A stretch of 64,000 nucleotides of DNA from Escherichia coli (GTDB taxonomy: Bacteria > Pseudomonadota > Gammaproteobacteria > Enterobacterales > Enterobacteriaceae), in NCBI RefSeq assembly GCF_003334305.1, contig NZ_QOWS01000005.1. One strand, 5' to 3'. Position numbers and translations under genes: made by a program. Each line of letters starts with the position of its first letter. Position 1 is the first letter of the stretch. This document shows positions 19,737 through 32,677 of this stretch, piece after piece. The notes below the pieces were generated by a model, which did no database searches, was not told the DNA's origin, and worked only from the letters and a program-made list of their open reading frames with translations.

Positions 19737-19954
19737 CTGAACGCTGCACTTTTTTACCTATCTCTTAAATAGTCATTTTCAATACAACTTTTTCTTTTTC
19801 ATCACAGCCTTAATGCTCCTTAGATAATAACCATTATCTAACAATGAGATACCTAATTCTTAGCGTGCCTGTTAACCCACACATCAGGGTCTATGCTTAT
19901 TAAAAGCAGGCAAAAAGCATGTTTTACGGTAAAGCCCCTGCGTTTGCTGGGTTG

Positions 19955-19975
19955 TACTGATAATCATTATCACTA
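19955..19975. promoter_or_regulatory. Fur box in the sufA promoter
   Basis: TGATAATCATTATCAC matches the Fur consensus GATAATGATAATCATTATC, about 50 bp upstream of the sufA ATG. Confidence 0.7.
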
Positions 19976-20017
19976 ACATGCTGTTATACGCTGAAAGCGA
20001 TGAAGTGAGGTAAATCG

Positions 20018-27028: not shown

Positions 27029-27057
27029 GTATTACACAAAGTTTTTTATGTTGAGAA
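27029..27057 (-). promoter_or_regulatory. lpp sigma-70 promoter
   Basis: Minus strand reads TTCTCAACATAAAAAACTTTGTGTAATACT with a 17-bp spacer between the -35 and -10 hexamers. Confidence 0.7.
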
Positions 27058-27235
27058 TATTTTTTTGATGGGAAGGCACTTATTTTTGATCGTTCGCTCA
27101 AAGAAGCATCGAACGCTGGGTTTTAGATAAAAAAATTGAGAGAAAACAGGATGCTTCCATCGGATTCATCTTAGATAAAGTGAGATTATATAGTGAAATC
27201 CGATTTGATTTTTTATTGCTTCTGGTTATCGATTA

Positions 27236-27263
27236 AATAAAAAAAGCGCCCATCAGGGCGCTT
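27236..27263 (-). terminator. pykF intrinsic terminator
   Basis: GCGCCC-ATCA-GGGCGC hairpin followed on the minus strand by a T-run. Confidence 0.75.
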
Positions 27264-27293: not shown

Positions 27294-28706
27294 TTACAGG
27301 ACGTGAACAGATGCGGTGTTAGTAGTGCCGCTCGGTACCAGTGCACCAGAAACCATAACTACGACGTCACCTTTGTGTGCCAGACCGCTCTGCAGAGCCA
27401 GTTCTTTACCCAGACGGTAGAAATCATCAGTAGAAGTGATCTCTTTAACCAGCTGCGGCACAACGCCTTTGCTCAGTACCAACTGATGAGCCGTTTTTTC
27501 GTTGGTGGTCAGTGCCAGGATGGTGGCATCCGGGAAGTATTTACGTACTGCGCGAGCAGATTTACCGCCCTGAGTAGCAACCACGATCAGCGGAGCATCC
27601 AGTTTTTCAGCAGTTTCAACGGCACCACGGCATACCGCTTCGGTAATGCGCAGTTTACGGTTGTCATTGTTGAACTCGAGACGGCTGTTCATCACGCGGT
27701 CGGTACGTTCGCAGATGGTCGCCATGATAGAAACCGCTTCCAGCGGGTATTTACCTTTTGCGGATTCACCAGACAGCATCACTGCGTCAGTACCGTCGAG
27801 GATGGCGTTTGCAACGTCACCGGCTTCTGCGCGAGTCGGGCGTGGGTTTTTGATCATGGAATCCAGCATCTGGGTCGCAGTGATAACGACTTTACGTGCA
27901 CGGATACATTTTTCGATCATCATCTTCTGGGCGAAGATAACTTCTTCTACCGGGATTTCTACACCCAGGTCGCCACGCGCAACCATGATGCCGTCAGAGG
28001 CTTCGAGGATTTCGTCGAAGTTGTTGAGGCCTTCCTGGTTTTCGATTTTGGAGATGATGTGGATGTTTTCGCCGCCGTGCGCTTTCAGGTGCTCACGGAT
28101 TTCGATAACGTCAGAACGCTTACGAATAAAGGAAGCAGCAACAAAGTCTACGCCTTGTTCGCAACCAAAGATCAGGTCCTGTTTGTCTTTTTCAGCCAGT
28201 GCTGGCAGAGCAATGGAAACGCCAGGCAGGTTCACACCTTTGTTTTCGCCCAGGTCACCGTTGTTCAGCACTTTACAGATAACTTTGTTACCTTCAATGG
28301 CGGTAACTTCCATACCGATCAGACCATCGTCAACCAGTACGGTGTTGCCAACTGACAGGTCAGTAGTGAAACCTTCATACGTTACCGCAACCATTTCGCT
28401 GTTGCCGATAACAGATTTATCAGTGGTGAAAGTAAAGGTCTGACCAGCTTTCAGAGAAACGTCGTTACCGCCTTCCAGTTTCATGGTGCGGATTTCCGGA
28501 CCTTTGGTATCAAGCAGGATAGCGGCGGTTTTACCAGTTTTGCTCATCACGTTGCGCAGATTCTGAATGCGCTGACCGTGTTCTGCATAGTCACCATGAG
28601 AGAAGTTCAGACGCATAACGTTCATGCCAGCGTCCAGCATTTTAGCTAACATCTCTTCAGATTCGGTTTTCGGTCCGATGGTGCAAACAATTTTGGTCTT
28701 TTTCAT
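27294..28706 (-). CDS. pykF: Pyruvate kinase I
   Basis: ORF frame 27294..28922; start chosen at [19 protein letters not shown] (470 aa). Confidence 0.9.
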
Positions 28707-28911
28707 GACAGTCTTAGTCTTTAAGTTGAGAAGGATGGGAGAAACTTGCTTTCTGGGCGCACTGCCGGAAAGCGAATCCGGTATTACGAAAGTGGTGGTG
28801 CCTCGCTCTAAGGATAGGTGACATCGAAAAAGCGTGCAGAGGAATGTGTGCTTGTGTCTCAGCCCAACGTGAGTGCCTGTTTTTGAGTCGTTGAGTTCTA
28901 CAGTCCAAAGT

Positions 28912-28927
28912 GCTGAAACCATTCAAG
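28912..28927. promoter_or_regulatory. Putative Cra (FruR) operator upstream of pykF
   Basis: GCTGAAACCATTCAAG resembles the Cra half-palindrome GCTGAAAC-GTTTCA. Confidence 0.4.
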
Positions 28928-29262
28928 AGTCAATTGGCGCGCATTATACGCTGAAATTAATCCAAAAGGAAAACAAAAACAGCGTTTCAAAAAATATACA
29001 ACTTGTTAGACAATAAATTGTTATCAAAGATTTAACGTTCCAGGGAAAAGGTTACGCAAAAACTTCACTGTTTGCGCAACGTCTGGTGCCGAAGTTGTCA
29101 GTGTGAGGATAAGTGAAAGTTCATCCGGTGTATAAATACATCATCGCTCAATTGCTACAGTTAAAATAATTTATCGCGTTATTTGTCTGATTTTGTTTGA
29201 TTTTTGTTTAATTGGTTAGATTGATATATGCTGATAGTTGGCATGATAAATAGGTATAAAGA

Positions 29263-29472
29263 ATGGGAAATCGGACAAAAGAGGATGAACTGTACCGAGA
29301 AATGTGCAGAGTTGTCGGTAAAGTTGTGCTGGAAATGCGCGATCTGGGGCAGGAACCAAAGCATATTGTTATCGCAGGCGTATTACGTACAGCATTAGCC
29401 AATAAACGCATTCAGCGCAGTGAGCTGGAAAAGCAGGCGATGGAAACCGTCATTAACGCACTGGTAAAATGA
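29263..29472 (+). CDS. ydhZ: Small protein YdhZ (reported fumarase D)
   Basis: 69-aa ORF in an AT-rich context. Confidence 0.7.
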   Translation: MGNRTKEDELYREMCRVVGKVVLEMRDLGQEPKHIVIAGVLRTALANKRIQRSELEKQAMETVINALVK

Positions 29473-29476
29473 CCAT

Positions 29477-29515
29477 TCAGGATGAGGCGGTAAGCTTCAT
29501 CCTGATATTCTTGCT
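29477..29515 (+). terminator. ydhZ intrinsic terminator
   Basis: TCAGGATGA ... TCATCCTGA hairpin followed by TATTCTTGCTTC. Confidence 0.6.
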
Positions 29516-29712
29516 TCAGTTGCGGTCCAGTTAATCATTCTAAATAACAACTGCTGAAATTATACGAATCGCGGTATGTATTTTAATTTATAACGATAAT
29601 ATTATTTTTATTTTCTGCAATGAACGTCACAAATAATTGTCGCTTAAGTTAAATTTATTTCAAATGATAATAAATATCAGTTCACTTATAATTTCTTGCT
29701 TTGTAATTTTAA

Positions 29713-29726
29713 TTGATAACGATCAA
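29713..29726. promoter_or_regulatory. FNR-consensus site upstream of ydhY
   Basis: TTGATAACGATCAA is a perfect TTGAT-N4-ATCAA palindrome, about 200 bp upstream of the ydhY ATG. Confidence 0.7.
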
Positions 29727-29927
29727 TGTTAAGGGCTCAGAATAATCACATTATTTTTTCTCCTAACCATAAAGGATTAGTTTATCGGCGTTAAATCTTT
29801 TCTCATACACTATCGGGTTAGGGAAAATATCTGGTGTTGGGGACAGAGTCAGCAGCGTATTAGTTGAATGCTTAATATCAGGCTGCTGAATTGTCAGCAC
29901 TGTGTTTGCGAAGAGGATGCGAAATAA

Positions 29928-32677
<2,750 letters not shown>

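Follow-up and report, generated by a model that had tools for sequence, protein, structure and literature searches.

The promoter islands of Escherichia coli, 78 of which were listed by Panyukov and Ozoline (PMC3661553), are AT-rich segments of at least 300 bp bound by H-NS, with promoter-like sites lying densely on both strands. At hlyE, yfgF/yfgG and pgaA/ycdT, H-NS masks or damps FNR sites whose signal in chromatin immunoprecipitation (ChIP) rises in an hns stpA mutant (PMC3688515). The passage of PMC4676285 that cites Nandal et al. (2010) describes induction of ftnA by Fe2+-Fur through reversal of H-NS silencing, and dmsA and frdA exemplify class II FNR promoters repressed by NarL/NarP. 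The DNA studied here resembles each of these systems in part. It is an AT-rich island around the small gene fumD, formerly ydhZ, lying between pykF and ydhY in a stretch of 64 kb of the E. coli chromosome (contig NZ_QOWS01000005.1; hereafter the window). We read the island as two adjoining elements, the region that controls the ydhYVWXUT operon and, next to it, the divergent promoter spacer between pykF and fumD; its core would be coated by H-NS and carry embedded operators, and we give this reading a probability of roughly 0.75. The feature is already known and every element of it is in the literature; the stakes are small. The locus is a textbook-style case of AT-rich control DNA that H-NS coats and that holds regulator sites. 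Added here are a conservation-based map of its operators (Fur-like box, FNR box, NarL-like site and two further conserved blocks) and the observation that what two families have kept upstream of ydhY is AT composition, not sequence.

The initial annotation of this DNA, made from its letters, had proposed an AT-rich island at 29100-29900 around ydhZ, and a sliding-window GC check bears it out. GC content is 50.3% in the whole window and 35.8% in 29100-29900, and the lowest segments of 300, 200 and 100 bp in the 64 kb all lie here, at 29531-29830 (26.0% GC), 29531-29730 (22.5%) and 29579-29678 (18%). The 38-mer quoted in that annotation was located at 29581-29618. Among 35 local intergenic regions, with a mean GC of 41.5% and a standard deviation of 5.8%, the two spacers flanking fumD rank third and fourth lowest, fumD-ydhY (29473-29927) with about 33.2-33.3% and ynhH-fumD with 33.9%; comparably low values are found in the lpp-pykF (32.6%) and slyA-ydhI (33.0%) spacers. 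The 200-bp minimum is 22.5% in the fumD-ydhY spacer versus 31-43% in 12 other long spacers, and the binomial probability of finding at most 45 G+C in 200 bases is 1e-8 at 41.5% GC and 6e-4 at 33.3% GC. TpA steps make up 11% of the dinucleotides of the core versus 4.7% window-wide. The AT-richness is real, beyond chance, and concentrated downstream of fumD. The extent first proposed has to be narrowed on its upstream side: the exceptional part is 29526-29830, while the ynhH/pykF-fumD spacer (34% GC; about 32-33% in 29116-29295, on the upstream side of fumD) has the ordinary composition of a divergent promoter spacer and fumD itself, with 46.7% GC, is not AT-rich. The gene names of the initial annotation, pykF, ydhZ (now fumD) and ydhY, are correct according to the open reading frames (ORFs) and the RefSeq annotation.

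After the core, AT content peaks in three further 200-bp stretches of the window, with 29-31% GC: 5520-5719, in or near ydiP and beside the ydiP-ydiQ spacer (4788-5102), 27043-27242 in the lpp-pykF spacer and 63355-63554 in the slyA-ydhI spacer. Myers et al. report an H-NS-overlapped FNR site near ydiP/ydiQ (PMC3688515).

Published ChIP data place H-NS on the island. The window runs in the reverse orientation to MG1655, with 99.0% identity across the 64 kb; positions were converted as NC_000913.3 = 1,784,404 - window coordinate, valid up to window 29792, and the papers use the older U00096.2 numbering, which is lower by 1976. The FNR box confirms the offset exactly (window 29713-29726 is the published site 1752702). 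Within 28700-30000 the strain differs from MG1655 at seven points, six substitutions and one 1-bp indel, five of which cluster at 29570-29625 inside the AT-rich core; the Fur-like, FNR, -10 and NarL-like blocks have the same sequence in both strains. The promoter island 1752593_318 (ydhY/ydhZ) of PMC3661553 maps to window 29518-29835 and was scored as H-NS-bound across all ChIP studies compared in that paper. The H-NS ChIP-chip regions of Myers et al. 2013 (PMC3688515, Table S3), 1750995-1753982 anaerobically and 1750103-1754293 aerobically, map to window 28446-31433 and 28135-32325. As published and mapped, the enriched region spans 3-4 kb, over fumD and ydhY and into ydhV and pykF. The ydhZ<>pykF spacer also carries an HNS flag in Shimada et al. 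2014 (PMC3946193).

The three mapped sources agree with the initial annotation in its proposal of an H-NS-bound, nucleoid-protein-organised region. Its further word, silenced, was an overstatement: under anaerobic conditions the ydhY promoter has both FNR and sigma70 on it, and FNR activates the operon. The FNR ChIP-chip peak at ydhY averages 0.295 in the wild type; in the hns stpA mutant it reaches 1.822, a significant rise (PMC3688515), and H-NS appears to damp occupancy at ydhY, not to abolish it. A sigma70-like scan places five of the 16 matches found in 20 kb within 29441-29692, on both strands and including the two best. This density of promoter-like sites agrees with the promoter-island label; the same composition would yield such a density anyway. 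The best of these sites, upstream of the FNR box and directed towards ydhY, may be a competing or a spurious promoter.

The ydhY promoter itself has the traits of a class II FNR-activated promoter, both in the position of its FNR box, TTGATAACGATCAA, and, from the published tables, in FNR binding and activation. Table S6 of Myers et al. gives site 1752702, TTGATCGTTATCAA, at -42.5 as activating, with an FNR ChIP-seq peak at 1752706, and the ydhY entry of Table S8 reads 'Activated' for FNR (PMC3688515). The anaerobic sigma70 ChIP-seq summit at 1752666 converts to window 29762, where it coincides with the start predicted from the FNR box. The sigma70 signal at ydhY is greater anaerobically (177 vs 47), and its peak is modest, 374 compared with 4160 at pykF (PMC3688515); further sigma70 peaks of the same study map to about 29336 (fumD) and about 28948 (pykF). 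In vitro, the ydhY promoter is preferred by the sigmaS holoenzyme (PMC3141248). For fumD, Shimada et al. 2014 (PMC3946193) proposed the motif TTGTCT-18-TTTAAT as a promoter.

Upstream of the FNR box the core carries a Fur-box-like 19-mer, TCAAATGATAATAAATATC, matching GATAATGATAATCATTATC at 14 of 19 positions. It is among the top matches to the Fur consensus in the 64 kb, where the known sufA box at 19953-19977, which served as positive control, scores highest, and it is 83% identical between Escherichia and Citrobacter. The published Fur ChIP-seq summit of strain CFT073, at 1910890, maps to window ~29654, about 15 bp from the centre of the box. Expression ratios of ydhY published for CFT073 are 0.07 (fur-/wt), 1.0 (ryhB-/wt) and 0.11 (fur-ryhB-/wt), that is, a positive and RyhB-independent control by Fur, and the Fur-2 iModulon includes both ydhY and ydhV. 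The exact operator is what we infer from the consensus match and the summit, which makes the 19-mer the probable Fur site. The conserved block TCACAAAT was considered as a second Fur site and discarded as a poor consensus match by eye.

By analogy with ftnA, the box at about -91 could be a counter-silencer, at which Fe2+-Fur, by displacing or remodelling the filament that H-NS forms on the core, would open the way to activation by FNR; we propose this tentatively and would not stake even odds on it. A literature search for a link or epistasis between Fur, H-NS and ydhY found no paper. If the proposal is true, the ydhYVWXUT promoter requires both sufficient iron and anaerobic conditions, and nitrate can veto it.

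NarL/NarP regulation of ydhY, with repression by nitrate or nitrite, is credited in the literature to Partridge et al. (2008). A 7-2-7 element just downstream of the inferred start is a candidate operator for this published repression, to judge from its sequence: each heptamer matches the TACYYMT consensus at six of seven positions. The conserved blocks at 29589-29600 and 29627-29634 are kept across 12 Escherichia and Citrobacter species amid otherwise unalignable AT-rich DNA. The former matches the high-affinity H-NS motif TCGATAAATT at seven of 10 positions, and its assignment to H-NS is speculative.

Put together, these elements would work as follows. The core is low-complexity, TpA-rich and flexible DNA coated by H-NS, which spreads over 3-4 kb and would lower access to the promoter without abolishing that of FNR. 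The -10 element of the ydhY promoter looks weak. Under anaerobiosis, FNR would bind at -42.5 and recruit RNA polymerase as a class II activator, with transcription starting at about 29762. Full expression would also require Fe2+-Fur bound at about -91, whose most likely action is to counter H-NS, as at ftnA, and NarL/NarP would repress ydhYVWXUT in the presence of nitrate or nitrite. The positions of these elements and of the genes around them are collected in the table.

Features of the fumD-ydhY region and its surroundings (window coordinates, except for the last row, which gives positions in Leminorella and Limnobaculum loci)
Feature	Position	Strand	Remarks
ldtE		+	Neighbour gene
lpp		-	Neighbour gene
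pykF	27294-28706	-	
ynhH (b4817, 64 aa)	28714-28908	-	Small protein gene of RefSeq, directly upstream of pykF within its leader
Proposed constitutive sigma70 promoter of fumD/ydhZ, TTGTCT-18-TTTAAT	29183-29212	+	In the ynhH/pykF-fumD divergent spacer
fumD (formerly ydhZ)	29263-29472	+	69-aa fumarase D; ORF, RefSeq annotation, NCBIfam NF007630 (E=1e-45)
Intrinsic terminator of fumD	29477-29505	+	12-bp stem followed by a T-rich tail; terminator scan
AT-rich core	29526-29830		About 26% GC; corresponds to published promoter island 1752593_318
Conserved block TATA(A/T)CGAT	29589-29600		Invariant CG; 12-species alignment
Conserved block TCACAAAT	29627-29634		12-species alignment
Fur-box-like 19-mer TCAAATGATAATAAATATC	29660-29678	+	14/19 against GATAATGATAATCATTATC; centre about 91-93 bp upstream of the inferred start
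sigma70-like site ATGATA-17-TATAAT	29664-29692	+	10/12, best in 20 kb; -10 TATAAT at 29687-29692; upstream of the FNR box, towards ydhY
FNR box TTGATAACGATCAA	29713-29726	+	Perfect TTGAT-N4-ATCAA; class II activator site at -42.5
Inferred -10 element CATTAT	29749-29754	+	Within CACATTAT, invariant in the 12-species alignment
Inferred ydhY transcription start	~29762	+	FNR box centre 29719.5 + 42.5
Inverted repeat CCTAACC/GGTTAGG	29762-29768 and 29816-29822		Conserved; ydhY leader
NarL/NarP-like 7-2-7 element TAACCAT-AA-AGGATTA	29764-29779	+	+3 to +18; nearly invariant in the 12-species alignment
Near-invariant 33-nt block next to the Shine-Dalgarno sequence	29898-29930	+	Runs up to the ATG; 166-nt ydhY leader
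ydhY	29928-30554	+	ATG at 29928; ORF, RefSeq; first gene of the ydhYVWXUT oxidoreductase operon
Fur-FNR arrangement in Budviciaceae	L027:3801-3866, L029:3797-3861, L030:3797-3861		

The operator map rests on an alignment of the spacer from 12 Escherichia and Citrobacter species plus exact motif searches, within a comparison of 30 related loci of Escherichia, Citrobacter, Leminorella and Limnobaculum recovered by peptide patterns, a search that reaches only close relatives. The gene fumD lies about 410-510 bp upstream of ydhY throughout Escherichia and Citrobacter, with the exception of C. amalonaticus AUH (about 1.2 kb). All 25 Escherichia and Citrobacter loci examined have the AT-rich spacer and the FNR box, and at every locus of normal length the fumD-ydhY spacer has 33-39% GC with a 200-bp minimum of 23-29%. 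The segment 29511-29659 shows 38% identity between Escherichia and Citrobacter, yet has 25-34% GC in all 12 species; composition is thus conserved where sequence is not. AT-richness upstream of fumD is specific to Escherichia, with 33% GC against 42-50% in Citrobacter.

Leminorella and Limnobaculum, of the family Budviciaceae, have no fumD upstream of ydhY, and the DNA there is more AT-rich still, with a minimum of 14-20% GC. In it, a Fur-like block, AATGATAATGAATATCA, lies about 50 bp upstream of an FNR box with one mismatch, TTGATAACGATCAC. The putative Fur-FNR arrangement is common to two families of Enterobacterales, Enterobacteriaceae and Budviciaceae.

Only in Escherichia and C. sedlakii does pykF neighbour fumD. 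In most Citrobacter, fumD-ydhY follows directly downstream of ttrS/ttrR, regulators of tetrathionate respiration, and of a ttrB-like ferredoxin gene (for example at L010:866-3206). As fumD and ydhY stay linked while the genes beside them change, the unit behaves as a module with genus-dependent neighbours.

The leader and the flanks of the core gave further observations. The 33-nt block that ends at the start codon is 88% identical between Escherichia and Citrobacter, and a similar block is found in Budviciaceae. RNAalifold on the 12 leaders returned the CCTAACC/GGTTAGG pairing and a weak hairpin near the Shine-Dalgarno sequence with zero compensatory changes, and for that reason we claim no RNA structure in the ydhY leader. 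The inverted repeat and the 33-nt block may be protein operators of the NarL-like kind, a target of a small RNA or structured RNA. An Rfam scan of 28500-30200 (E<=1) gave nothing, so that neither the spacer nor the leader holds a known small RNA or riboswitch. At the position of the fumD terminator, Citrobacter has a hairpin too, of other sequence. Downstream, ydhY is followed by ydhVWXUT, and on the other side ynhH takes up part of the apparent pykF-fumD intergenic DNA. In E. coli ES7, an IS1A with a target duplication of 9-10 bp sits in codons 7-10 of ydhY (corresponding to window 29946-29955) and truncates the annotated gene. The idea that the AT-rich core is an insertion hotspot, raised by this IS1, was dropped, the insertion being inside ydhY and outside the core.

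Several observations weigh against the reading of the island as an H-NS-coated control region. Table S6 of PMC3688515 gives the nucleoid-protein overlap at the ydhY FNR site 1752702 as 'None', which conflicts with the regions in Table S3 of the same paper that span this position. The ChIP data come from MG1655 and CFT073, and the window strain is 99% identical to K-12. A literature search for papers on ydhY, ydhV or fumD expression in hns mutants turned up none. When up to two mismatches are allowed, the high-affinity H-NS motif has a sole match in the core, at 29779-29788, and it is not meaningfully enriched window-wide (83 matches against 67 expected); its best local match differs at one position and lies at 29168-29177, upstream of fumD. 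Part of the composition could stem from AT-biased mutation of DNA under no constraint. Fur activation could also take another route, such as occlusion of the promoter-like site at 29664-29692: since the -35 element of this competing site lies inside the Fur-like box, Fur bound there could aid the true promoter.

The mutational contribution can be taken further, to a spacer that drifted AT-rich under a G:C-to-A:T mutation bias and on which H-NS binding is incidental and without regulatory role. The upstream half of the core, essentially unalignable at 38% identity between Escherichia and Citrobacter, fits such drift, as do the five of seven regional K-12 differences that lie in the core and the other local spacers that match the whole-spacer GC of 33%. 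Drift does not readily give a 200-bp minimum of 22.5%, far under that of the 12 other long spacers, nor does it readily explain why a 23-29% minimum recurs in about 25 Escherichia and Citrobacter loci, and one of 14-20% in Budviciaceae, when the sequence has turned over and the flanking genes differ. FNR occupancy, moreover, responds to the loss of H-NS and StpA, and we consider purely neutral composition unlikely. The initial annotation had offered curved promoter DNA as an alternative to H-NS binding. In a reading of this kind, A-tracts in phase with the helix would curve the DNA upstream of the ydhY promoter, which is then organised or activated by the bend itself and not by a coating protein. 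The 19 A/T tracts of at least four bases in 29500-29850 are among the highest densities in the window, and a moderate bend is predicted at about 29650-29675 (34 degrees per 31 bp, near the 95th percentile of the window). Against this, the power of the AA/TT periodicity at 10-11 bp is reached or exceeded by 95-99% of dinucleotide shuffles, and none of the 15 strongest bends of the window falls in the core; the wedge model is of Bolshoy/Trifonov type, and its result is indicative only. With no phasing of the A-tracts and an unexceptional bend, curvature did not hold up and is very unlikely to be the explanation; the TpA content of 11% points to flexible DNA in place of a static bend, and the core looks flexible and easily melted, not statically curved.

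Slightly less credible again is xenogeneic silencing, by which fumD-ydhYVWXUT would be foreign and the AT-rich tract the signature that H-NS recognises and silences. The table of PMC3661553 places the locus in a GIST genomic island and notes a neighbouring gene that Nakamura et al. predicted to be foreign. The recovered distribution, limited to Escherichia, Citrobacter, Leminorella and Limnobaculum in a search that reaches only close relatives, is patchy, and the unit adjoins pykF in Escherichia and C. sedlakii and ttrS/ttrR in most Citrobacter. The coding sequences of fumD and ydhY-ydhT have 47-53% GC, however, which is normal for E. coli, and only the non-coding core is AT-rich. The fumD-ydhY locus is present in all 5426 complete E. 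coli genomes, with at least 95% identity in all but one, and is by this presence part of the E. coli core genome. The operon, moreover, is not silenced: it is expressed, under the control of FNR, Fur and NarL.

We therefore return to the H-NS-coated control region with embedded operators and to how it compares with described systems. It shares with the promoter islands a length of about 300 bp, AT-richness, densely spaced promoter-like sites on both strands and binding by H-NS. Those islands are described as giving little productive transcription; the ydhY core instead holds a regulated FNR-dependent promoter and conserved operators. Like the masked FNR sites of the hlyE type (PMC3688515), the ydhY site lies inside an extended H-NS region of more than 1 kb and gains FNR ChIP signal in the hns stpA mutant; unlike them, it is already bound by FNR and functional in the wild type, where it is classed as directly activated, so that H-NS appears to modulate its occupancy instead of masking it. 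With the class II FNR promoters repressed by NarL/NarP it has in common a consensus FNR box near -42, a reported repression by nitrate or nitrite and a 7-2-7-like element near the start, and differs from the dmsA and frdA type by the unusual length of its leader (166 nt) and the unusual AT-richness of its upstream region. The ftnA gene offers a further parallel: control by Fur is positive and RyhB-independent at both loci, with fur-/wt ratios, in the same data set, of 0.07 for ydhY and 0.16 for ftn. At ftnA the Fur site presumably lies well upstream of the core promoter in H-NS-bound AT-rich DNA, as at ydhY. The two differ in that ydhY additionally needs FNR, and ydhY would serve well as a second locus, next to ftnA, for testing whether Fur works against H-NS.

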